From Escherichia coli (lineage in GTDB: Bacteria > Pseudomonadota > Gammaproteobacteria > Enterobacterales > Enterobacteriaceae): a stretch of DNA of 64,000 bases. The translations under genes were made by a program, and so were the position numbers. The DNA lies in NCBI RefSeq assembly GCF_016903815.1, contig NZ_CP069973.1; one strand, given 5' to 3'. Shown piece by piece: positions 3,363 through 63,344 of this stretch (its first letter is position 1; every line of letters begins with the position of its first letter). The notes beneath the pieces are model-generated. The model saw only the letters and a list, made by a program, of their open reading frames with translations. It searched no databases and was not told where the DNA came from.

Positions 3363-4205
3363 TCAGGCTGAGAGCACAGAAGGAAAGTGCCTGACTATTA
3401 TATCGTTAATTCTGTCAATCAGTTCCAGCCTTTTGAAAGTGATGTGTGCAGATCCCTTCTTAAAGTATTTAATGATAAACATTTCGTCTTCATAGTACTC
3501 TTTACCCTGAACAGACCGGATATGCTCATCCAGACGAATTATGATATTTTCCCGGTTGTCGGGAGTGGGGATGCCACTGAAGAGATGCAGCATCCTTTCC
3601 AGGTCGGCAACCCGGTCAGTCTGTGGTCCGGTGATAAGATGAAATCCCCACCGGCCCCATCTCACCAGATTGTTGACGATAATTTTACTGCCAAATTTAC
3701 AGGGAGAGTTGGTTTTATAATTCCAGCTCAGTCCCCTGAAGACGTTAATCACTCCCCGCTCAAACACCTCATCCTTATTCTGGTGCAGTTGTTCAAATGT
3801 GCTCATAATGTTCGCTTCACTGATTTCCGGAAAATTATCGTACTCCAGTGACCGGTACCATGTATCACGGGTCTGCGCATCCATTAATGACAGCATCCCG
3901 GAGCGTTGCATCAGGTCACGCCAGATTTCACGGTCAAGGTTGCGGGTAATGGCTTTCATTGCCGTTTCAGGTTTCTCCATGAGCCAGCAGCCGCAGCGAA
4001 AATCCTGTTTCATGGCCCAGTCCAGTGCGGTTTTACCGCCAATACTTTCTGTCATTGCTGAGATTTCAGCCAGTTGCCGGATAAGTATGTCGATTTGCAA
4101 CAGTGTACTCTTTCGTACAGCCAGAATGTGGCTGACTGAGGTTGAGCAGATAACGTCCGTATGTCCGTTGACCACTTCCGGACGGGAGACTGTGATTTCA
4201 GACAT
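3363..4205 (-). CDS. Hypothetical protein, DUF4942-like, last gene of the CP4-like module
   Basis: 280-aa ORF directly downstream of the YeeW-like gene; family assignment from memory only. Confidence 0.45.
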   Translation of the reverse strand: MSEITVSRPEVVNGHTDVICSTSVSHILAVRKSTLLQIDILIRQLAEISAMTESIGGKTALDWAMKQDFRCGCWLMEKPETAMKAITRNLDREIWRDLMQRSGMLSLMDAQTRDTWYRSLEYDNFPEISEANIMSTFEQLHQNKDEVFERGVINVFRGLSWNYKTNSPCKFGSKIIVNNLVRWGRWGFHLITGPQTDRVADLERMLHLFSGIPTPDNRENIIIRLDEHIRSVQGKEYYEDEMFIIKYFKKGSAHITFKRLELIDRINDIIVRHFPSVLSA

Positions 4206-4289
4206 AATCGTTTTTCCTTTTTGCAGATAAATGAAAACGCCAGCCCTGTTCAGGCTGGCGTCAGTGGAATGAAGTATGGTGAGTAATAT

Positions 4290-4712
4290 TTACCGGTTCT
4301 GGTGCAGAAGCTGCAGTTGGCGCAGGGTATGGATATCTTCCCTGGCCTGTTCAATGCAGGGCAACAGTGCTGCCGAATCCGTTTTATCCTCATCGTTGTC
4401 GAAGATAATCCCCGATTCGCAGTCGATATTGTCCTGCAGCCACACAATCAGAATATCCAGCGCCGTTTCTGTGGCTAATGGCATTACGCTCTGTATCACT
4501 GTATTGTCTTCCGGCAACTGATGAGGGCTGGCAGAGGTCGCCGGTGTTTCGGTAGTGACACGCTCATCCACCACGCGGAGTGAATAACCATTTTCCGCGA
4601 CTTTATTAAACAGTTCAGCGAGATTAACACCATCGACGTCAACGACAATGCGCCCCATGTTCAGTGCCTGCACGTTAATGCTGTCGGCTTCCAGCGTCAG
4701 GGCCAGTTTCAT
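4290..4712 (-). CDS. YeeW-like protein
   Basis: N-terminus [31 protein letters not shown] resembles YeeW; 4-bp overlap with the toxin gene. Confidence 0.6.
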
Positions 4713-5086
4713 TGTTTCGCCTCCGGATGCTTCCCCCGGGTAATGTTATTTACCGTTCTGTAGTTGCTGCGGGTCATCAGACCTGTTGCCCGGCGAGCCC
4801 GGAGAATATCAATGCTGTTGATTAACTGCGACGAGGCTCCTGCGCTGAATCCCGGCTGGTCAGTTCGTACCAGTGCGTATTTTTCCACGAGAAAGTTCAC
4901 TGCATCACACAGTGAAATGCCTGCCTCAATATGCTGCTCAATCACGCGTTCATCCACGAACGGTGTGTCATTCAGCGTAAGGCTGTAATGCTGGTCCAGT
5001 AACCGGGTGAGCAGTGTCTGCCAGATGGTGACGGGAGACGGGCAGCACGATACCTCCCGTACATGCGTGTCGGGTAATGTTTTCAT
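4709..5086 (-). CDS. CbtA/YeeV/YkfI-family toxin (type IV toxin-antitoxin)
   Basis: MKTLP...[42 protein letters not shown]... matches the CbtA family. Confidence 0.85.
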
Positions 5087-5175
5087 ACTGAAGATTTTCC
5101 TGATATGCAGAGATAAAAAATGGGACAGTGGTGTGGTGAAAACACCAGGCCGGAGCAGAAGGTTATTCTGGTGGT

Positions 5176-5544
5176 TTACTTTTTCGTTTCAGGTGTCGGA
5201 TAAACAGCCAGATAAACGTAACCACAGGAGCCGAGGGTGTCGGCTTCACAGGTCAGCCCCTTCGCATACAGTGTCACGGTATGCTGATGGCGGGGATTCA
5301 GTTCACCACTGGTGAGCATTAATTTCAGTTGTTTCATCAGCAGCGGAAAGGCCTGGTCCAGAGGGTACGCATCCGCATCTCTGAACCGGCCTCTGTTACC
5401 GGCACGGTCGGCAAGGTAATGCAACCGGTTACCCTCCTGCACCAGACGGGCGCCGAAACAGGGCGTCACTGTGCAGGGTAGTCCCCACCAGGGATGGTCG
5501 TGATTGTCATCGGGATGCGTTGTCCCGGAGAGTGTGTCTGACAC
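5176..5544 (-). CDS. CbeA/YeeU/YfjZ-family antitoxin; probable GTG start at 5544 (the in-frame ORF extends to 5652)
   Basis: [49 protein letters not shown]... matches the CbeA family. Confidence 0.8.
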
Positions 5545-24001: not shown

Positions 24002-24235
24002 ATGTTGACCACAACAAGCCACGACAGCGTGTTACTGCGTGCCGACGATCCCCTGATCGACATGAACTACATCACCAGTTTCACCGGTATGACCGATAAA
24101 TGGTTTTACAAGCTGATCAGTGAAGGTCATTTCCCTAAACCCATCAAACTGGGGCGCAGCAGCCGCTGGTACAAAAGTGAAGTGGAGCAGTGGATGCAGC
24201 AGCGAATTGAGGAATCACGAGGAGCAGCAGCATGA
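24002..24235 (+). CDS. alpA: AlpA-family phage regulatory protein (MerR-like HTH)
   Basis: MNYITSFTGMTDKWFYKLISEGHFPKPIKLGRSSRWYKSEVEQW matches the AlpA pattern. Confidence 0.75.
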   Translation: MLTTTSHDSVLLRADDPLIDMNYITSFTGMTDKWFYKLISEGHFPKPIKLGRSSRWYKSEVEQWMQQRIEESRGAAA

Positions 24236-24357
24236 AACGTGTTGCAATGCCGGCGCTGGTATTGCGGAAATCAGCCCTGTCCCCGATGCTGGCGACACTC
24301 CCGCTCATCTTTCTGCTGACTCCTCTGGTCTGCCAACTGTTTGTCATCATTTCCTGA
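24232..24357 (+). CDS. Putative 41-aa hydrophobic peptide translationally coupled to alpA (ATGA overlap)
   Basis: ATG at 24232 overlaps the alpA stop; AGGAG-like motif upstream; below the ORF-track size cutoff. Confidence 0.3.
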   Translation: MKRVAMPALVLRKSALSPMLATLPLIFLLTPLVCQLFVIIS

Positions 24358-24526
24358 CTGATTCGTCATTCCCTTCGTCCCGCCAGTCACTGGTGTTTGT
24401 ATCGTACCGTCCGGTGTTGATGTGCGTTTTCCGTGTGTCTGCACCGGCTTAACAAAATTCAACAGGGTTTGAAAAGGAACATTTCGTGCAAATAACCGAA
24501 GCCTTAATTTCAGAGCCGGGAGACAT

Positions 24527-24891
24527 CCGGCGTTTTGTTCAGCAGGCGCTGGAGTTCTTTAATCTGCTTCATGGCAGCAGCAAGTTCAGAGGCAGGAACG
24601 ACCTGTTCTCCTGCGGCCACAGCAGTAAGACTTCCCTCCTGGTATTGCTTGCGCCAGAGAAATAACTGGCTGGCTGCCACACCGTGTTGCCGGGCAACAA
24701 GGGAGACCGTCATTCCCGGTTCAAAGCTCTGCTGAACAATAGCGATCTTTTCCTGTGTAGTACGCCGTCTGCGTTTCTCCGGTCCTAAGACATCAATCAT
24801 CTGTTCTCCAATGACTAGTCTAAAAACTAGTATTAAGACTATCACTTATTTAAGTGATATTGGTTGTCTGGAGATTCTGGGGGCTAGTCTA
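24527..24891 (-). mobile_element. IS2 fragment (left end with truncated insC)
   Basis: Near-identical to the IS2 left end seen intact at 53024; InsC translation diverges after LQRLL; terminal GGGGGCTAGTCTA. Confidence 0.85.
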
Positions 24892-24939
24892 GTTTTAAAA
24901 CGCCCCCTGCCGTATCAGAACTGGGGAATGCTACAGGGT

Positions 24940-26048
24940 TTGACCTGTTCCTCGAGGATCGTAGCGGAGCTGGCCATGAAAAAATGATCCAGGCCCGAAA
25001 TCAGCTTCTTGCTGAAGCGGCGAAAAGTCCAGCGTTAAACATGGTTCGTCCTAACGGCATGAACGATGAGCCTCAGTTCCAGATTCTGATTGATGACGAG
25101 AAAGTTCAGGCGCTTAAACTGAGCATGAGCGACGTCGACAACATAATGTCAGCAGCCTGGGGTTCGATGTATGTAAATGATTTTAACGATCGTGGACGGG
25201 TGAAAAAAGTCTATATTTAGGGCGAACCCGGCTCACGTATATCACCGCAGGATTTTGATAAATGGTATGTCCGTAACAGTGATGGCGACATGGTTTCCTT
25301 TGCCTCTTTTGCAACAGGCAAATGGATTTATGGCTCACCAAAACTGGAGCAATATAATGGTATCTCTGCTGTCGAAATCCTGGGGGAACCGGCACCAGGA
25401 TACAGTTCCGGGGATGCAATGAAAGCAATTGAGGATATTGCGGCAAGACTTCCCGAAGGTTTCCATATTTCCTGGACAGGTTTGTCTTTTGAGGAACGAC
25501 TTTCAGGTTCTCAGGCTCCTGCACTATATGCACTTTCACTGTTGATCGTCTTTCTGTGTCTGGCTGCACTGTATGAAAGCTGGAGCATTCCTTTCTCGGT
25601 CATGCTGGTTGTTCCGCTTGGTGTCCTGAGGGCTGTCTGTGCTACTTTGTTGCGCGGCCTTGGTAACGATGTCTTTTTCCAGGTCGGTTTATTAACAACA
25701 ATAGGGCTGTCTGCGAAAAATGCCATACTTATCGTGGAGTTTGCTCGTGAATTGCATGAGAAAGAAGGACTAAGCATTAAAGAGGCTGCTGTTGAAGCGG
25801 CGAGAGTGAGGTTAAGACCGATAATTATGACTTCGCTGGCATTTGTAATGGGGGTTATCCCACTGGCTGTCTCGACTGGAGCAAGTTCCGGAAGTAAACA
25901 TGCCATCGGTACTGGTGTGGTTGGAGGGATGATCACTGCTACGATACTGGCAATCTTTTATATTCCTCTCTTCTATATGTTAATTGCCGGGTTCTTCAGC
26001 CGCAGAAATAAGAAATCATCGGATAAGACTGAAGCTGAGCAATCATAA
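24940..26048 (+). pseudogene. RND efflux transporter (AcrB/MdtF family), 3' portion only, with in-frame TAG at 25218..25220
   Basis: Translation aligns to the C-terminal third of AcrB-like pumps in one frame across the stop; 5' end removed at the IS2 fragment. Confidence 0.8.
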
Positions 26049-31965: not shown

Positions 31966-33769
31966 GAGTAGGAGGCGGGATCACTCCCGCCGTCCTCTCA
32001 CACCACCGTACGTGCGGTTCCGCATACGGCGGTTCATGTTAACTCTGGAACTGCCTCTACTGTTCCAGCAGTGATATCAGACCCTGCCTCCTGAACCATG
32101 CATTCTTTATCGCCTGATTCATATGGCTTGACCCTGAGTTCCACCATGGCCCGTGGTTGTTGTACGCAGAGATCATTGCCCTGTCCTTACTCAGTCCTGC
32201 TCTTTGCAGATTCTTTGCCCGGGTTCGCGGTCTCTTCCACTGCCGCTACAACAAGCAACGCAGTTTCCGTTTGATCCAGCCATCCAGCTCCTCCAGCACT
32301 CCTCTGACTTCCGTCAGCCTGAAGTAGCTTATCCATCCACACAGCACTGGTGTCAGAGCATTGATTGTCGCTTTCACTGATTTGCTCCGGTTTCCCGTCG
32401 TCAGACTGTGGACTTTCTCCTTCAGCCTGTTCACGCTCGTCAGGGCTATCTTCAGCTTCGCCTGTTTGTGCCATGTCACACTGTACCCGAGGAACTTCCG
32501 ATCCCACGGGCGCGCCACCGCGCTCTTCTTCTCATTCACCTTCAGTTTGTTCTCCACGAACGCCCTGATGTTCTTCAGCAGATGGTCGCCCGCTTTCCGG
32601 CTGCTTACGTAGATGTTGCAGTCGTCTGCGTAGCGGCAGAAGCTGTGTCCACGACGCTCTAGTTCTTTATCCAGTTCATCCAGCAGGATGTTCGACAGTA
32701 ACGGCGACAGTGGGCCGCCCTGCAGCATGCCCGCCTGCCGTTTCTCCCTTTGCCCGTCTTTAACCATTTCCACTTTCAGGTAGCGGCGTATCAGTCACAG
32801 CACCCGCCTGTCCTTTATCGTTCTGGCCAGACGCGTCATCAGGAGTCTGTGATCCACCCGGTCGAAGAACTTCTCCAGATCCATATCCACCACCCACCGT
32901 TTGCCACCCCGTATGTAACGCTGTGCCTGTTGCACCGCCTGCTGGATAAGCCTGTCCACCACCGTCGGGATGCCTGAGGTTCTCACGCCGCCATCCGGCT
33001 TCGGGATATCCATCCGGCGTATTGCCCGCGGCTGGTAGTTTCCGTCAATCAATGCCTGCCTGACGCTGCGCCAGTTCTTCTTCAGCCACGGTTTCAACTC
33101 CGCCACGCTGAGGTTATCCACCCCCGCCGTGCCTTTGTTTTCCAGCACGCGCTGATAAGCCAGCATCAGGTTTTCTCTCGTTATCACCGCTTCCATCGTC
33201 AGCGGCACTTCCGCTTTCGTTTGCCCACCCGCCGCCGTGCTGATTTCAGCGCCATCATGCAGCCCTGACGGATACTGTCCGTCTCCTCTGCCGCTGGTCG
33301 CAGTTGCCTGCGCTTGTGCTTCATTAATCATCATCGGGTTCGGATGTCCTAATCACAGTTAATCATGTTCGGCCCTTCATGCTGCCGGTTTTGCAGCACT
33401 ACTACGGCGTCGGCTGACTTCTGCCGCCCCATCCCGGCGCCTCACGGCGCCGGTAGCACACTGGCAGGGCGACAGATCTCCCGGGGTAATTCACGTGACT
33501 TTCCTGCTTATGCCTGTCGGCTTTACGTCACAGCGTTCCGTGTGAGTATCGGGCTTTGGTGATTTGTGCCACCTTACCCTGCTGCGCCGCCTTAACCGCT
33601 TCCTGTTCGTCAGGCCAGCATTTTGCATCCAGCTTCCTTCAGATTTCACCTCGCGATGAACACCCTTGCCTTCCGCTAACACTTCCCCTCACCGGGTGTG
33701 TGGAGGACTTTCACCTCTTAGTCGTTCTTCTGCCACCACAGTTGAAGAACAGCGCCAGTCACGGCGCAC
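31966..33769 (-). mobile_element. Degenerate group II intron (class C-like) inserted after a terminator hairpin
   Basis: 5' end GTGCGCC immediately after hairpin 33771..33810; domain V-like CCGTATGCGGAACCGCACGTACGG near 32000; disrupted RT ORF inside. Confidence 0.65.
32246..33334 (-). pseudogene. Group II intron reverse transcriptase, disrupted (in-frame stop, internal deletion, C-terminal truncation)
   Basis: Two abutting ORFs (179 and 175 aa) with RT motifs FCRYADDCNIY and GGPLSPLLSNILLDELD. Confidence 0.8.
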
Positions 33770-49906: not shown

Positions 49907-50257
<351 letters not shown>

Positions 50258-50357
50258 CCACTTCAGTTTTTTTATTTCTGAATAAAGCGACATCCACGAT
50301 ATAACGTCGTGGGTGTCGGTGATGATTCTTTTTTTGTTCGCAGATTAAGGTGCGTTT

Positions 50358-52145
<1,788 letters not shown>

Positions 52146-52538
52146 TACCGGACCATTTCTTTATTCCGGACTTTCCCCATACTGTTATTATCAGGTTTAT
52201 TTAATTCGCCATGAACCCGTTATTTAACGATATTCAGATGCGTCTTTTTCATCTGAACCACTCGCCGTACTCCTGGTACTGGAATGTAAGATTCATACCT
52301 CTGGAAGCCGTGTATATTGGCAACGATACCTGTCATATCACCATTACCTGTAATCAGTCCGGTTTTCACTGAGCGTTATATCAGAAACCTTAATGAGCTG
52401 TTACCGGTTCTGAAACGGCGGTGGGATGTGACACCGGCAATCATCTGCGCAGTGGAATACCTTTCCTGGGTAACGGTATCGCACTGACTCTCTCCCTATA
52501 ATTAACAATGGTTTAATACCTAAACACTGAATCTGCCG

Positions 52539-52979
52539 ATGACTTCTGAAGTGAAACTGAAAACCGGTGGTGACCCCCGGTCATTACCGGATTATGCTGC
52601 CCTGCGCGATGAAATCAGCAAACTGACCCACCCGGCACGCCCTGATGTGGACTGGCGTTACGTGGAAACGCTCTGCCTGCGTCTGTATGAACACAATGGC
52701 GTGGAATTACAGACGGCATCCTGGTACACCATTGCCCGGATGCATACAACAGGGTTAAGTGGTCTGAATGAAGGGCTGGCTCTGATTGCTGCGCTGACCC
52801 GGCATCACTGGTCAGTGATGTGGCCGCTGAATACACACTCCCGGCTGGAAATTATTACCGGTCTGTTCAACCGTCTGCAAAAAACGCTCCGGGCCATGCC
52901 TCCGGATAACCGTGACAACCTGCCCCTGCTGTATCAGACCGAAACATTCCTGAAGACACTGAGTGATCTCCTTCCATGA
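52539..52979 (+). CDS. ImpA_N-domain protein (T6SS-associated TssA/VasL-like N-terminal domain)
   Basis: [40 protein letters not shown] fits the remembered ImpA_N pattern. Confidence 0.45.
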
Positions 52980-53114
52980 AAATACGCAGGCTTGGCACGA
53001 ACTTAAACAGAGCAGTAAAGTGGTAGACTGGCCCCCTGAATCTCCAGACAACCAATATCACTTAAATAAGTGATAGTCTTAATACTAGTTTTTAGACTAG
53101 TCATTGGAGAACAG

Positions 53115-53480
53115 ATGATTGATGTCTTAGGGCCGGAGAAACGCAGACGGCGTACCACACAGGAAAAGATCGCAATTGTTCAGCAGAGCTTTGAACCGGG
53201 GATGACGGTCTCCCTCGTTGCCCGGCAACATGGTGTAGCAGCCAGCCAGTTATTTCTCTGGCGTAAGCAATACCAGGAAGGAAGTCTTACTGCTGTCGCC
53301 GCCGGAGAACAGGTTGTTCCTGCCTCTGAACTTGCTGCTGCCATGAAGCAGATTAAAGAACTCCAGCGCCTGCTCGGCAAGAAAACGATGGAAAATGAAC
53401 TCCTCAAAGAAGCCGTTGAATATGGACGGGCAAAAAAGTGGATAGCGCACGCGCCCTTATTGCCCGGGGATGGGGAGTAA
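53115..53480 (+). CDS. insC: IS2 transposase InsC (orfA)
   Basis: [56 protein letters not shown]. Confidence 0.95.
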
Positions 53481-54343
53481 GCTTAGTCAGCCGTTGTCTC
53501 CGGGTGTCGCGTGCGCAGTTGCACGTCATTCTCAGACGAACCGATGACTGGATGGATGGCCGCCGCAGTCGTCACACTGATGATACGGATGTGCTTCTCC
53601 GTATACACCATGTTATCGGAGAGCTGCCCACGTATGGTTATCGTCGGGTATGGGCGCTGCTTCGCAGACAGGCAGAACTTGATGGTATGCCTGCGATCAA
53701 TGCCAAACGTGTTTACCGGATCATGCGCCAGAATGCGCTGTTGCTTGAGCGAAAACCTGCTGTACCGCCATCGAAACGGGCACATACAGGCAGAGTGGCC
53801 GTGAAAGAAAGCAATCAGCGATGGTGCTCTGACGGGTTCGAGTTCTGCTGTGATAACGGAGAGAGACTGCGTGTCACGTTCGCGCTGGACTGCTGTGATC
53901 GTGAGGCACTGCACTGGGCGGTCACTACCGGCGGCTTCAACAGTGAAACAGTACAGGACGTCATGCTGGGAGCGGTGGAACGCCGCTTCGGCAACGATCT
54001 TCCGTCGTCTCCAGTGGAGTGGCTGACGGATAATGGTTCATGCTACCGGGCTAATGAAACACGCCAGTTCGCCCGGATGTTGGGACTTGAACCGAAGAAC
54101 ACGGCGGTGCGGAGTCCGGAGAGTAACGGAATAGCAGAGAGCTTCGTGAAAACGATAAAGCGTGACTACATCAGTATCATGCCCAAACCAGACGGGTTAA
54201 CGGCAGCAAAGAACCTTGCAGAGGCGTTCGAGCATTATAACGAATGGCATCCGCATAGTGCGCTGGGTTATCGCTCGCCACGGGAATATCTGCGGCAGCG
54301 GGCTTGTAATGGGTTAAGTGATAACAGATGTCTGGAAATATAG
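53438..54343 (+). CDS. insD: IS2 transposase InsD (orfB)
   Basis: 301-aa ORF with the IS3-family DDE core; overlaps insC in the frameshift arrangement. Confidence 0.95.
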
Positions 54344-54355
54344 GGGCAAATCCAA

Positions 54356-55084
54356 GTGGCTTTACCGGAAGCCATGGTGAAGGGATATATCACCCGCCTG
54401 GAGAACCAGCCTGTGCAGGGGGAAGTATCGTCTCCGGTAACGCTACTGGCGCAGGCACTCAGGCTTGAAGCTCCGGATGTGCAGGAACATCAGACCCTGC
54501 CGCACTCCCGTCTGGTGTATGTTGTTTCTGAAACAAAAACAGAGCCCACACTCTTCCTTCAAAAATCCCCGCTCACGTTTCTGAAAACGTTTGTTACAGG
54601 TGTCTGTACGGCATTGCTGGCGGTCTGCGTGGCCATTCCGGGATGGCAGTTTCTGACACAGCCATCACCGGCGGAGCAGCAACTCAGGGCGCTGCTGACA
54701 CCCTCACCGGATGTGCTTTCAGCAGACCAGATGATGCAGCTCAGCAGAACACTGTTAAATCATGCGTCAGAGTGGATAACCCTTTCCGGTCAGCAGATAA
54801 CGCGACTGACAGAATTCCCCCCGGCATACAACCTGCAACGCAGTGTGCAATTGCTGCAGCAACTGATGGTACTTTTCCCCGACAATCCTCGTGTTCAGGA
54901 AATGGTGGATAACTGGCAGAAGAGTGCAAGGAGTCGTGCGCTCCCGGAAGAGGCGATGACTGGCTGGAACGAAGGCATGACCCGCTTACAGCTGTTGGCT
55001 GAGCGCCTGAACCGTCCGGATGAACAGCGGGGAAAATACATGACGGTCAGTGAGCTGAAAACGGAGGTGTCTGGCATCATGTAG
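54356..55084 (+). pseudogene. Membrane protein gene split by IS2 (5' 60 bp at 52964..53023, remainder here); possible VasL-like C-terminal part
   Basis: Reading frame is continuous across the IS2 target duplication; contains a transmembrane segment. Confidence 0.55.
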
Positions 55085-55275
55085 GCTTTTAACCGGCATA
55101 TCCTGGCAGAAGAACAGTTGTGTCACTATGGTGAAGTCCGCAACCAGAATGGAAGCGAGCAGCAGCAAAAACAAATGAAAGATGCATTTGTTAAGCTGAT
55201 TCACGTTTACTGTTTTATATAAAGCCTTTAGGATGTGGGGGAAGGGGAGTGTTGCAATTTATTCGGTGAGATAGT

Positions 55276-55983
55276 TTGTTTGTGGAGTGTTTAAGCGCTT
55301 TTGGATGTTCGTCTGTTGTTTCGAATAGTATGGTGAATATGAATGGTAAATATAATGTCAGGAGTGAATTGTTAGCTCGTTGTATCGGAACTGGTAGATT
55401 GAAAGGAGATGTGAGAAGTGATTTTATTGGGTTTAATGGTAGTAAACAGGTAGGTTATGTTTTATTAACTTTGTTCTTAACGAAAGTAATAAATTCTGAT
55501 TTGCTCTCTCATTATCGTATATTTAATCGTTTTTTGCATTATGAGAGAAAAGTTATGGACATATATAATTCTTTGAGTGATATAGAAGTTGATTGTATTT
55601 GCCAGGAAGTGATGGCTATATATGAACATACTCAGCGATGCTGCAACGAAAAGAAAATCACAACTATCCAGTTAGGCAGGAAACTTAATGGCAGGTATGC
55701 AGATACGATTGCTGAGTTAAAAGAAACAGCAGAGATAAGAGGGGAGGATGTGATTTCTTTTGAGATGGATATATTGAATTCTTTTAATGATGCGGATGAA
55801 TATCACGGACGTGTTAAACTGGAGTTGGATATACCTGCTTCAGATATATTATATTGCCATGATTTTATTGATTCAAAACATGTAAACTCCTGGTTGGTTG
55901 AACCACATGAGTGGGTGGTTATAAATCGTTCTCTCAATGGGATTGTTACAGTGCCAGTATCATCAATAAAGATTCTTTATTGA
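55276..55983 (+). CDS. Hypothetical protein, AT-rich gene (start uncertain)
   Basis: ORF only. Confidence 0.45.
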   Translation: MFVECLSAFGCSSVVSNSMVNMNGKYNVRSELLARCIGTGRLKGDVRSDFIGFNGSKQVGYVLLTLFLTKVINSDLLSHYRIFNRFLHYERKVMDIYNSLSDIEVDCICQEVMAIYEHTQRCCNEKKITTIQLGRKLNGRYADTIAELKETAEIRGEDVISFEMDILNSFNDADEYHGRVKLELDIPASDILYCHDFIDSKHVNSWLVEPHEWVVINRSLNGIVTVPVSSIKILY

Positions 55984-56123
55984 TAAATATGTTTGTAATA
56001 TGTTTTATATGTTCATCAGGATGAAAGTAAGCAATTTTAGTAGTGGCTAATTAAACGTCATTTAATGTTTGTTGCTATATGTTGAAAGCATAAACAGGTT
56101 TCTTTTGCATAAAGTAAAAATAA

Positions 56124-57356
56124 ATGAATGATAATTTTTTAACGGAGAAAGTCCTTACTGGAGAGAATGTTCTGCGTGCAGCAATTGCTCGTATTGAGTG
56201 GATTTTTGAAATATTTCCATCAGTTTGTCTCTCTTTTTCCGGTGGTAAAGATTCCACCGTGCTTTTCCATCTTGTGGCTGATGTGGCCCGCAGGAAAAGA
56301 CGTCGTTTCTCTGTACTGTTCATTGACTGGGAGGCTCAGTACCAGTGCACCATTGAACATATTCAGAAGATGCGGGAAATGTACCATGATGTGACGGAAA
56401 CCTTTTACTGGGTGGCGCTTCCCCTGACCACGGTAAACGGTGTCTCGCAGTTTCAACCGGAGTGGATATGCTGGGAGCCTCGTGTGACCTGGGTTCGCCA
56501 GCCACCGGAAGAGGCCATTACGGATATGGCGTATTTTCCCTTTTACCGGTATGCCATGACGTTTGAAGAATTTGTTCCGGCATTTTCTTCCTGGTTTGCT
56601 GGCAACCGGTGTGGAGTGGCAGTGCTGACCGGTGTCCGGGCGGATGAATCCCTCAACCGCTTTATGGGACTGGTGTCCCAGCGCAAACTGAGATATGCCG
56701 ATGATAAGCCTTGGACCACGGCATCGCCTGAAGGGTTTTACTACACTATGTATCCGCTGTATGACTGGAAAACTCGTGATATCTGGATATATCACACCAG
56801 AACCCGTGCCATCTACAATCCCCTGTATGATCTGATGTACCGTGCCGGCGTACCGTTACGCAACATGCGTGTCTGTGAACCTTTTGGTCCTGAACAACGT
56901 AAGGGACTGTGGCTTTACCATGTTCTGGAACCGGAAACCTGGGCCAGGATGTGTGAGCGGGTGTCAGGGGCTGCCAGCGGGGCACTTTATGCCAATGAAA
57001 GCGGGGCTTATTTTGCCCTGCGTAAGCGCATATCAAAACCAGCCCATCATACCTGGCGCAGCTATGCGATGTTTCTGCTGGATGTGATGCCGGAAAGAAC
57101 GGCAGAACATTACCGCAACAAGATAGCTGTCTATCTGCGCTGGTATCAGACGCGGGGCTTCCCGGATGACATCCCGGATGAACAGGAGAATGACCTGGGG
57201 AGCCGGGATATTCCGTCCTGGCGACGTATCTGTAAGACTCTCATAAAGAATGATTTCTGGTGCCGTACCCTCTCCTTCAGTCCGAACAAACCCCGGCACT
57301 ATGAACGTTATCTGCAGCGTATGAAAGAAAGGAGGAAGGAATGGGGGATTCTGTGA
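56124..57356 (+). CDS. PAPS-reductase-family PP-loop protein with C-terminal extension (IbrA/YbdN-like)
   Basis: PP-loop motif SFSGGKDST; 410 aa; followed by an overlapping ParB-like gene. Confidence 0.75.
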   Translation: MNDNFLTEKVLTGENVLRAAIARIEWIFEIFPSVCLSFSGGKDSTVLFHLVADVARRKRRRFSVLFIDWEAQYQCTIEHIQKMREMYHDVTETFYWVALPLTTVNGVSQFQPEWICWEPRVTWVRQPPEEAITDMAYFPFYRYAMTFEEFVPAFSSWFAGNRCGVAVLTGVRADESLNRFMGLVSQRKLRYADDKPWTTASPEGFYYTMYPLYDWKTRDIWIYHTRTRAIYNPLYDLMYRAGVPLRNMRVCEPFGPEQRKGLWLYHVLEPETWARMCERVSGAASGALYANESGAYFALRKRISKPAHHTWRSYAMFLLDVMPERTAEHYRNKIAVYLRWYQTRGFPDDIPDEQENDLGSRDIPSWRRICKTLIKNDFWCRTLSFSPNKPRHYERYLQRMKERRKEWGIL

Positions 57357-57979
57357 CACCGGAGATACTGAGCAACATGATTCGTCAGTACTTCAGCCAG
57401 GAACGACCAGAAGAAGAGGCCATACAGGCCCTGAATCATCTGCGCAGGGTGCTTCATGAGGTCAGTCCATTTGCACAGGAGCCTGTGGACTGTGTGCTGT
57501 GGGTGAAAGCAGATGAGGTGGTGGCCAACGATTATAACCCCAATGTCATGGCGCCGGGTGAGAAGAAACTGCTGAAACATTCACTGGAGCAGGATGGGTT
57601 CACGCAGCCTGTGGTTGTCTCGGAAGAGAAGGAGCATTATCTGGTCGTGGATGGTTTTCATCGTCAATTACTGGGCAGGGAAGCAGGTACGGGAAAACGC
57701 CTGAAGGGCTGGTTGCCAGTGACCTGTATTAATCCGGAAAGAAAGGGACAGGCCTCACGTATTGCTGCAACCATTAGACATAACCGGGCCAGGGGGAAGC
57801 ACCAGATAACTTCAATGTCTGATATTGTCAGGGACCTGTCGCGGCTGGGCTGGACGGATGAACGTATTGGTACGGAGCTGGGTATGGACCAGGATGAAGT
57901 TCTCAGGTTGAAACAGATTAGCGGGCTGACGGAGCTGTTTCTGGAAGAGGATTTCAGTCCGGCATGGACGATTCGCTGA
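57341..57979 (+). CDS. ParB-like nuclease-domain protein (IbrB/YbdM-like)
   Basis: ParB/Srx-type motif VVDGFHRQ; 16-bp overlap with the upstream gene. Confidence 0.7.
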   Translation: MGDSVTPEILSNMIRQYFSQERPEEEAIQALNHLRRVLHEVSPFAQEPVDCVLWVKADEVVANDYNPNVMAPGEKKLLKHSLEQDGFTQPVVVSEEKEHYLVVDGFHRQLLGREAGTGKRLKGWLPVTCINPERKGQASRIAATIRHNRARGKHQITSMSDIVRDLSRLGWTDERIGTELGMDQDEVLRLKQISGLTELFLEEDFSPAWTIR

Positions 57980-58018
57980 GACCGTCATATATGTATATTA
58001 TTTCAGTGAGTTAATGTT

Positions 58019-58327
58019 TTGAGCAGGAAAAAGAGTACCCCGGAAGTCGTGGAATACATGGTTGCACAGAAGCTGGAGGCTGCGGGTTGCTGGCGCAGAG
58101 CTTCCGCCCGCTGGCTTTTTGTTATGGGAAATGTTGAATGTACAGAAGCACAACGGGAGTGGTTGTTGTTGCGCAGGAATTATTGCCTGGCGCAGATATC
58201 GTCCCCGCCGCTACCTGAAAAGCTGGATATCAGCGAAGTGGCGAAAGCTGCAGATGCCACGCTGAGGCGAATGGGGATTGCCAGTCCGTCCGGGGAGGTA
58301 TTCAGAAAAGGTACACCGGTCTGTTGA
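58019..58327 (+). CDS. PerC-family transcriptional regulator-like small protein; start uncertain (TTG 58019 or ATG 58058)
   Basis: KLEAAGCWRRASARW resembles the conserved PerC-family core; from memory. Confidence 0.5.
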   Translation: MSRKKSTPEVVEYMVAQKLEAAGCWRRASARWLFVMGNVECTEAQREWLLLRRNYCLAQISSPPLPEKLDISEVAKAADATLRRMGIASPSGEVFRKGTPVC

Positions 58328-58347
58328 TATTCAGGTAACAGGTATTA

Positions 58348-58992
58348 ATGATGAAGAAAGGAATGGCAAACAGTATATCAATGACATGGCAACTTTTATG
58401 CGATGATCATGGTTTTACCCGGGAGCACTACAATCAGCTGAAGAAATTCAGCCCGGAGGCATTACGTGAAATTATTGCTGAAATAGCCTGCTGCCATCCG
58501 TCAACCAGTATATTGCTCAGGAATAAGTGGCTGACACTGCCGGAGGATATTCCGGAGCAGGTTACCCGTGAATACGAACGAAGAATACAGAACTGTCCAT
58601 CTTTCAGGAGCGAGAAAGAGGCGGAATCCTGGCTAAATGAACTGTTTTTTGCTGTGATTGCGCCGCTATACCGGGTTGTCCCCGGACAATCAGAACAGGT
58701 TGAATCCTTTGTTCTGCAGCTTATTGCCGAACAGGAGCGGGTTTGGGAGCTTATTCTAACCAATGATGGTTATTCATGGCATTGCGCACTTTATGATATA
58801 TTATTTCATCTGGTTTTACGAAATATGGAAGACCAGCCTGAACATCAGAGACAGCGAATAACAAAAATACTTAATGAGTCCGATACAAGGCGGGTTGCAG
58901 AAGAGATTAAATTCCGGATTCAATATCTTCAGGATGAAGAACAAAAGAGAGTTTTAAGTGAGTTGGTAAATGTCCTGATTTCAAAAAGATAA
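58348..58992 (+). CDS. Hypothetical protein (214 aa)
   Basis: ORF in the same-strand cluster. Confidence 0.5.
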   Translation: MMKKGMANSISMTWQLLCDDHGFTREHYNQLKKFSPEALREIIAEIACCHPSTSILLRNKWLTLPEDIPEQVTREYERRIQNCPSFRSEKEAESWLNELFFAVIAPLYRVVPGQSEQVESFVLQLIAEQERVWELILTNDGYSWHCALYDILFHLVLRNMEDQPEHQRQRITKILNESDTRRVAEEIKFRIQYLQDEEQKRVLSELVNVLISKR

Positions 58993-59056
58993 AACATGTC
59001 GGAGTAATTTTTCTATATATTAAAAAAACAGGTTTGTATTACCATAAAGGAGATCG

Positions 59057-59380
59057 GTGAATAACCGTTATTGGATGATCTCCTTCCATAAAAATACGCG
59101 CAATCTAACGGTTCGCTCTGTGCCAAAAAAAGACATTGCTCACAATATCGAGTTAATCATTCGGCCGTTGAACATTCCCATTGAAAAATTTCTCAGTATA
59201 GAATATACCAATGTTGAGGGCATTCCTCTTACATCTCGAAGGATAACTATCATGGGTCTAAAACCAGGTCCAAAACCAATTGCTAAGTCAACAGGAAAAC
59301 CGGATCAACGCCGACGCGATAATAAAGATACTCCTGGCAATACTCCGGGATTAAAGCCAAGTAAGTCCACAGGTAAGTAA
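59057..59380 (+). CDS. Hypothetical small protein with Lys/Pro-rich C-terminus; start uncertain (GTG 59057, ATG 59075 or ATG 59252)
   Basis: ORF only. Confidence 0.3.
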   Translation: MNNRYWMISFHKNTRNLTVRSVPKKDIAHNIELIIRPLNIPIEKFLSIEYTNVEGIPLTSRRITIMGLKPGPKPIAKSTGKPDQRRRDNKDTPGNTPGLKPSKSTGK

Positions 59381-59388
59381 AAAATAAG

Positions 59389-59412
59389 GGTATAAATACT
59401 TATTTATACCCT
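59389..59412 (-). terminator. Rho-independent terminator (perfect 11-bp stem GGGTATAAATA / TATTTATACCC) with T-run on the minus strand
   Basis: Hairpin read directly from sequence. Confidence 0.65.

Positions 59413-60604: not shown

Positions 60605-63344
<2,740 letters not shown>

Follow-up and report, generated by a model that had tools for sequence, protein, structure and literature searches.

TagA is a membrane-associated accessory component of the T6SS that binds TssA and is found at the fully extended sheath's distal end, where it stops and holds the sheath (PMC6745524, PMC6450956, PMC6730261). The sheath-holding and TssA-binding role was derived from experiments on the TagA proteins of EAEC and V. 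cholerae (PMC6745524, PMC6450956). In tagA mutants the sheaths are bent and over-long, and about 12% of the killing activity is left (PMC6745524, PMC6450956, PMC6730261); overproduced TagA inhibits sheath assembly in V. cholerae (PMC6745524). EAEC TagA is an accessory protein of the sci-1 system and belongs to the Class B TssA-like proteins (Santin et al. 2018, as cited in PMC6745524, PMC6450956, PMC6730261); the EAEC sci-1/sci-2 island sits at pheU (PMC6730261).

The region described here belongs to a 64-kb window (the whole stretch of E. coli DNA that was analysed) and was initially annotated, from its ORFs, as an orphan pair of ImpA_N/VasL-like genes of which the downstream membrane gene is split by IS2. 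It is very probably one non-functional copy of tagA, located in a pheU island that keeps only the sci-1-type 3'-flank block, and it appears to have decayed stepwise.

ORFs and domains of the region

The first ORF (ORF1) comprises 146 codons at 52539-52979 by both the ORF listing and direct reading, and the ORF listing gives the second one, with IS2 in place, as 242 codons at 54356-55084. In silico removal of IS2 together with one AGTGG yields a 261-codon ORF2 that starts with GTG at 52963, lies in a frame different from that of ORF1, shares the last 17 nt of ORF1 and is entered by IS2 20.3 codons from its start, as the initial annotation had described it (another frame, an overlap and an interruption after about 20 codons). 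When this restored gene was searched, a 100% match was found in E. coli KMi006. The features of the region are as follows.

52211-52487, + strand: remnant of a small ORF that precedes tagA (intact loci encode 68-101 aa here), its frame shifted where 29 nt are deleted near 52364
52539-52979, + strand: 5' fragment of tagA (ORF1, 146 aa), with ImpA_N encoded by 52560-52865
52963-53023, + strand: start of ORF2 (GTG at 52963), in which tagA runs on in the shifted frame as far as IS2, from translation of the IS2-excised sequence
52966-52981, + strand: lesion 1, 16 nt (ATCTCCTTCCATGAAA) inserted at codon 143 (after codon 142), from the alignment with L006, L007, L003 and L012
53019-53023, no strand: left target-site duplication AGTGG, present as a single AGTGG at empty sites
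53024-54354, + strand: lesion 3, a complete IS2 of 1331 bp that interrupts reconstructed codon 157
54355-54359, no strand: right target-site duplication AGTGG, which abuts the IS2 end
54360-55084, + strand: middle and 3' fragment of tagA, with VasL from about 54788, ended by the stop at 55082
55082-55084, + strand: lesion 2, a nonsense TAG at codon 398 of the reconstruction, where intact alleles have CAG, by which the last 46 residues are lost
55085-55222, + strand: final 45 codons of tagA, now untranslated, with the original TAA (55220-55222), colinear with the 3' end of the intact 443-aa ORF of L006

The ImpA_N-like signature claimed for the first ORF was confirmed: ORF1 matches ImpA_N (Pfam PF06812) with 67.9 bits (gathering cutoff 26.9), and the match (profile positions 9-117 of 119, ORF1 residues 8-109) covers nearly the whole profile. 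VasL (Pfam PF12486) is matched by the restored ORF2 with 86.2 bits against a cutoff of 27.3 at profile positions 2-97 of 147 only, compared with full matches from positions 2-141 to 2-146 in intact relatives; the match of the window copy is partial because the TAG at 55082 ends the frame early. Between the two domains lies a strongly hydrophobic 19-residue segment (LKTFVTGVCTALLAVCVAI; encoded by 54581-54637, reconstructed residues 231-249), which reaches a maximum mean of 2.08 in a 19-residue Kyte-Doolittle window and is a candidate transmembrane segment. This segment and the VasL match are in agreement with the proposal that the downstream part is of the VasL type and membrane-associated. 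The reconstructed product has the N-terminal ImpA_N, the central hydrophobic segment and the C-terminal VasL (here shortened) of TagA, a Class B TssA-like protein.

Other assignments were considered as well. TssA proper (Class A, ImpA_N plus VasJ) was rejected: the NCBIfam TssA equivalogs TIGR03362 and TIGR03363 gave 81.7 bits (cutoff 230) and 43.6 bits (cutoff 161), about a third of what is required, with matches that cover the ImpA_N part only, and VasJ was not matched in Pfam. A defence-system reading was dropped since a PADLOC scan of the reconstructed TagA gave no match. The PGAP label "POTRA domain-containing" or "ShlB/FhaC" placed over the hydrophobic segment was treated as an annotation artefact, with no Pfam POTRA match at E<=1.

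One gene rather than a gene pair

A conceptual fusion of the two ORFs gave more than 1500 matches in the protein collection, and the best of them, at 443-465 aa, unite ImpA_N and VasL in a single protein and align over 100% of the query at up to 98% identity, the range for such uninterrupted proteins being 88-98%; one such intact relative (P0001, from a metagenome contig) is found in the same helicase/ibrA-like context. ORF1 residues 1-142 align to the N-termini of intact proteins of 443-456 aa, and the downstream residues of ORF2, translated from the IS2-excised sequence, also match intact TagA proteins. Alignment of the IS2-excised window DNA with the intact allele L006, the T6SS-linked alleles L003 and L007 and also L012 places the 16-nt insertion, followed by a few clustered substitutions just 3' of it, between the two parts. 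The insertion shifts the frame and brings in the in-frame TGA at 52977-52979 that ends ORF1, whose last four codons and stop derive from the inserted nucleotides; the layout of two overlapping ORFs in different frames exists because of this insertion. Beyond the premature stop, the sequence at 55085-55222 is colinear with a longer VasL coding sequence in E. coli E597, in addition to that of L006. As judged by these alignments, ORF1 and ORF2 correspond to the two halves of one tagA-type gene, and the proposed gene pair is to be replaced by a single gene that the 16-nt insertion divided.

It could be argued that a true two-gene system, made of a soluble ImpA_N protein and a membrane VasL protein, existed before IS2, which then hit the second gene only. 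The 17-nt overlap resembles that of translationally coupled genes, and the frameshifted layout is present in most of the approximately 366 complete-genome records that are at least 99% identical (by best match to the IS2-excised allele). Against this, every more distant homologue, including those in T6SS clusters, is a single ORF with both domains, and the split maps to an insertion that an intact allele (L006), 98% identical and set in the same helicase/ibrA-like context, does not have. Additionally, the start available to ORF2 is only a GTG, neither a convincing promoter nor a convincing start signal for it was seen in a simple scan, the full ORF2 is not called by PGAP in any genome inspected, and a TAG and two independent IS2 insertions accrued later. 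An original two-gene arrangement is very unlikely in view of these points.

The IS2 insertion

IS2 generates a 5-bp target duplication, and the element in the window is flanked by a perfect one (AGTGG on both sides), so that the claim of a complete IS2 with a perfect duplication stands. Its two overlapping ORFs encode HTH_Tnp_1 (53070-53480) and an rve/rve_3 integrase (53438-54343) according to Pfam, and PGAP annotates it in a window-identical genome as [quoted passage not shown]. When the ends of the element were compared without gaps, 14 of 42 positions matched. The size of about 1.3 kb, the HTH_Tnp_1 and rve ORFs, the 5-bp duplication and the recovery of an empty site all identify it as IS2 of the IS3 family. 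The unoccupied site, 100% identical to the IS2-excised sequence over 1665 nt, was found in KMi006 and in another genome, and the IS2-bearing version was present in 34 of 5426 complete genomes; both results bear out the view of a clean and recent insertion. Since the KMi006 empty site is identical over its whole length, IS2 is the youngest of the lesions. The other part of the claim, that IS2 split a downstream gene, holds for the insertion itself and fails for the target, which was no longer intact: the frameshift and the nonsense codon at 55082 were already there. A promoter and terminator scan of the region returned sites no commoner than in shuffled sequence, and an outward promoter borne by IS2 is unsupported.

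A nested series of lesions

Marker strings specific to each lesion were counted in all retrieved loci, with the following result.

Metagenome contig L006: no 16-nt insertion, no TAG, no IS2
E. coli E597 and the second copy of EAEC 042 (L004, L011): insertion, no TAG, no IS2
KMi006 (L002): insertion, TAG, no IS2
The window and strain 7/2: insertion, TAG, IS2 at AGTGG
S1-JOR-02-A (L010): insertion, TAG, IS2 59 nt upstream with target-site duplication CTGAG

The three lesions are nested, and strains with none, one, two or all three of them were recovered. Codon 398 is CAG in L004, L006, L011, L012, L003 and L007-9 and TAG in the window, L001, L002 and L010. Searching with L006 as query, the best full-length matches among complete genomes were 99.0% identical, a value consistent with the 16-nt gap, and no gap-free match to L006 was found among the complete genomes of the collection. 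The IS2 of S1-JOR-02-A differs from the window copy at 2 of 1331 nt and has the same orientation; it represents an independent event and removes the end of ORF1. In other genomes an IS3-family element lies in the gene, or the gene is truncated beside a group II intron (H44, H47).

Small indels are a common artefact of long-read assemblies, and the frameshift and the stop might be suspected of being sequencing or assembly errors, with IS2 as the sole interruption. However, both the 16-nt insertion and the TAG turn up identically in independent complete genomes that stem from different laboratories and countries, and a 16-nt non-homopolymer insertion is atypical as an error, so that this explanation is effectively refuted.

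With its frame interrupted by a 16-nt insertion with frameshift, by IS2 and by a nonsense codon, the window copy lacks the single uninterrupted frame of TagA and is for this reason filed as a tagA pseudogene and not as a working member of the family. The dN/dS between L006 (an intact allele in a core-less context) and the T6SS-linked alleles is about 0.35, the same value as among the T6SS-linked alleles. dN/dS gave no sequence signal of long relaxed selection in any of these pairs (about 0.35 in all), from which it follows that the decay is recent, and only the disabling mutations attest to it.

PGAP "pseudo" flags were left out as evidence of decay because the intact ORF of EAEC 042 is flagged in the same way, being cut by PGAP into three "pseudo" pieces, a spurious "POTRA" one among them; the lesions were taken from alignments instead. 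The RefSeq/PGAP annotation of the TagA family is unreliable.

Genomic context and linkage to T6SS

Strain 7/2 matches the window at 99.997-100% over all stretches compared. The window is part of a genomic island, about 75 kb long, between cadC and the tRNA-Phe gene pheU, with a tyrosine integrase adjoining pheU. A tRNA scan of the window found none; pheU and the integrase are located beyond its end. The gene order of the block is NERD/UvrD helicase, small ORF, tagA, a variable slot, ibrA/ibrB-like genes and perC. Two parts of it are shared with the sci-1 flank of EAEC 042: 50268-55198 (helicase, small ORF and tagA) at 90-92% identity and 56166-59398 (ibrA/ibrB-like genes, perC and two hypothetical genes) at 96%. 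Homology to the sci-1 flank begins directly after a fragment of an IS3-family integrase at 50015-50257, which is plausibly a rearrangement scar, and 5' of this fragment a Grp propanediol microcompartment cluster stands in place of the T6SS genes. According to the annotation of the identical genome, no T6SS core genes are found in the 64-kb window or in the pheU island.

The small ORF that precedes tagA is itself damaged. Its 29-nt gap was seen in the alignment with the T6SS-linked loci L003 and L007, PGAP marks it as "frameshifted" in genomes identical to the window, and an intact version of 101 aa is present in the EAEC 042 sci-1 flank; no Pfam match was obtained for it.

Orthologues at 88-91% identity are linked to T6SS genes: in L007-9 and STEC316 they follow tssA-tssF-tssG-tssJ-vgrG-(effector/immunity)-tssE and the small ORF, whereas no core cluster is found in or adjoining the window copy. 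EAEC 042 harbors an intact ORF of 455 codons (L012:24071-25438) whose product is 88% identical to the reconstructed protein and which lies five genes past the tssE of sci-1, with a hypothetical gene, a GIY-YIG nuclease, the NERD/UvrD helicase and the small ORF in between; the characterised TagA is encoded at this place beside the sci-1 cluster. EAEC TssA is EC042_4540 (PMC6745524). By gene counting, the 455-aa ORF is the tenth locus tag after EC042_4540. EAEC TagA is presumably EC042_4550, in agreement with the gene count from EC042_4540. EAEC 042 also has a second, core-less copy of the block at 3.40 Mb that carries the 16-nt insertion, and the block thus occurs as a unit of its own, separate from the T6SS core.

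The orphan character given to the locus in the initial annotation, with no other T6SS genes present, thus stands within the window; it does not stand beyond it, where the block proves to be a conserved sci-1-type 3' flank and a T6SS is found in the genome. The proposed search for T6SS clusters elsewhere in the matching genome revealed a complete one at aspV, which includes an intact ImpA_N+VasL gene of its own, so orphan status is local only. The product of that gene is 29% identical to the reconstructed TagA.

Stepwise decay and the fate of the fragments

The order of events that best accounts for these alleles starts with the 16-nt insertion at codon 143, by which the frame was split into ORF1 and ORF2. 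A change of CAG to TAG at codon 398 then shortened the VasL domain, and IS2 finally transposed into codon 157 with duplication of AGTGG. Left without its cognate machine, the gene presumably decayed in these steps, of which related strains keep the intermediates. Detachment from the sci-1 core probably relaxed selection on tagA, and the remaining fragments probably have no function.

A different fate can be imagined for the 146-aa ImpA_N fragment, which might alone be retained and active while the rest is junk, for instance by modulating the aspV T6SS through competition at TssA or at the sheath end. Its domain is complete, ORF1 and its upstream region were spared by the three lesions in the window, and three inspected genomes have an annotated ORF1 protein of identical sequence (WP_001403216.1); the T6SS of the matching genome looks active and has TssA and VasL proteins that contain ImpA_N, and excess TagA inhibits sheath assembly in V. 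cholerae (PMC6745524). On the other hand, cross-talk is doubtful because the aspV ImpA_N+VasL protein is just 29% identical, other lineages (H44, H47) truncate or interrupt the ImpA_N part, and the IS2 of S1-JOR-02-A removes the end of ORF1. Retention of an active fragment is on balance very unlikely. The complete domain and the native upstream region, kept in all near-identical copies examined, leave a residual role of the fragment conceivable though unlikely, and fragments could in principle interact with the aspV T6SS of the same genome; that the free-standing fragment is expressed and acts in trans on this system, for example by capping or competing at TssA and the sheath's distal end, is highly improbable. 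If true, it would be a domesticated fragment of a pseudogene instead of junk.

Decay of a single tagA copy remains the preferred reading, and its practical consequence is that "orphan T6SS gene pairs" like this one are fragments of single genes that should be excluded from counts of T6SS components. TagA, IS2 and the decay of pseudogenes in E. coli islands are all well described and the biological import of the locus is small, although the recovered allele intermediates make it a clear small case of stepwise decay after loss of the partner machinery.

Comparison with known systems

The IS2 copy corresponds to IS2 as known in E. coli in its length of 1331 bp, its 5-bp duplication and its two ORFs, which overlap and show a programmed frameshift; nothing in it is unusual, and the only notable point is the independent IS2 located 59 nt away in another strain. 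V. cholerae VasL/TagA (VCA0121) shares PF06812 and PF12486 and the TssA-like class (PMC6745524); it differs in its sequence, with 19.3% identity to E. coli TagA (PMC6745524), and in that its gene is intact and lies inside a T6SS cluster. The protein of the aspV T6SS (WP_001087587.1, 450 aa) has the same ImpA_N+VasL architecture and a similar length, but it is only 29% identical and is encoded by an intact gene within a complete cluster.

EAEC TagA is the closest counterpart. The order of ImpA_N, hydrophobic segment and VasL is the same, the identity to the 455-aa ORF of EAEC 042 is 88%, and the loci share the helicase and small ORF on the 5' side, the ibrA/ibrB-like genes and perC on the 3' side and the pheU site. 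Unlike the EAEC gene, the window copy is frameshifted at codon 143, interrupted by IS2 at codon 157 and stopped at codon 398, the sci-1 core is absent, and some 17 residues at the end of the window's allele type are different too, the alleles diverging from about 55175. Compared with these systems, a tagA pseudogene with a recent IS2 is an object of an already known kind, a product of ordinary gene decay.

The tagA block and its boundary

Homology to the 3' flank of sci-1, the T6SS cluster of EAEC 042, starts at window position 50268, right at an IS3-family fragment, which probably marks the rearrangement that separated the block carrying the T6SS accessory gene tagA from the T6SS core.

50015-50257, + strand: IS3-family integrase-core fragment
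50358-52145, + strand: NERD and UvrD-helicase protein of 595 aa, named '3'-5' exonuclease' by PGAP

The order NERD/UvrD helicase, small ORF and tagA, all directly adjoining, is common to the window and the EAEC 042 sci-1 flank. In PADLOC, the window helicase matched the candidate defence family C3a187 'NERD+UvrD' (E = 4e-140).

The expected place of TagA in EAEC 042 holds an uninterrupted ORF.

L012 (the EAEC 042 sci-1 flank locus) 24071-25438, equal to NC_017626.1 4884070-4885437: ImpA_N and VasL ORF of 455 codons

RefSeq/PGAP breaks this ORF into three pseudogene fragments, one of them named 'POTRA domain-containing protein'; this call is an annotation artefact, and the inspected E. coli genomes show it repeatedly at the tagA locus. 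The tagA pseudogene interrupted by IS2 in the window also carries an independent IS2 in E. coli S1-JOR-02-A.

L010 (the S1-JOR-02-A locus) 3936-5266, same orientation as the window IS2: IS2 with the target duplication CTGAG

Its site lies 59 nt upstream of that of the window IS2, and two insertions less than 60 bp apart suggest a preferred target region or merely a neutral landing pad.

T6SS genes outside the window

The genome identical to the window (E. coli strain 7/2) harbors a complete T6SS and the host is therefore not T6SS-free.

NZ_CP023820.1 241268-271281, outside the window: complete T6SS cluster at aspV

This cluster comprises tssB, C, E, F and G, tagH, tssJ and K, dotU, a clpV-like gene, vasI, tssA and tssM, together with an ImpA_N and VasL gene, hcp, vgrG and Rhs.

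Other content of the window

The following features were read from the annotation of the same identical genome. The Grp cluster for a glycyl-radical propanediol microcompartment is present in full (grpA-grpS, ~27500-47850, - strand); it is interrupted by a hypothetical gene and a gene with a reverse-transcriptase domain, which separate grpP from grpO (~32250-32730, - strand). A group II intron (ltrA) is nested inside an IS3-family remnant (~61280-62785, + strand).

The region 3' of tagA

55223-56123: AT-rich slot between tagA and the ibrA-like gene, GC 0.34 against 0.48 window-wide
55339-55983, or 55276-55983 if a TTG start is used: slot ORF of 214-235 aa
56124-57979, + strand: overlapping ibrA-like and ibrB-like genes

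The slot ORF had no match in Pfam or PADLOC. In STEC316 (locus L003) the equivalent slot is occupied by a Zorya system of type II, and in EAEC 042 by two unrelated ORFs. The slot has the look of a hotspot for variable cargo or defence genes.

The ibrA-like protein comprises PAPS reductase and DUF3440 domains, and the ParB_N match of the ibrB-like protein was below threshold (18.5 bits, cutoff 26.3). The pair is followed 3' by PerC and two hypothetical genes. In PADLOC, the ibrA-like protein showed weak similarity to BrxP (E = 1e-7) and DndC (E = 2e-4), and the block of the ibrA/ibrB-like pair, PerC and the two hypothetical genes shares 96% identity with the copy adjoining sci-1 in EAEC 042.
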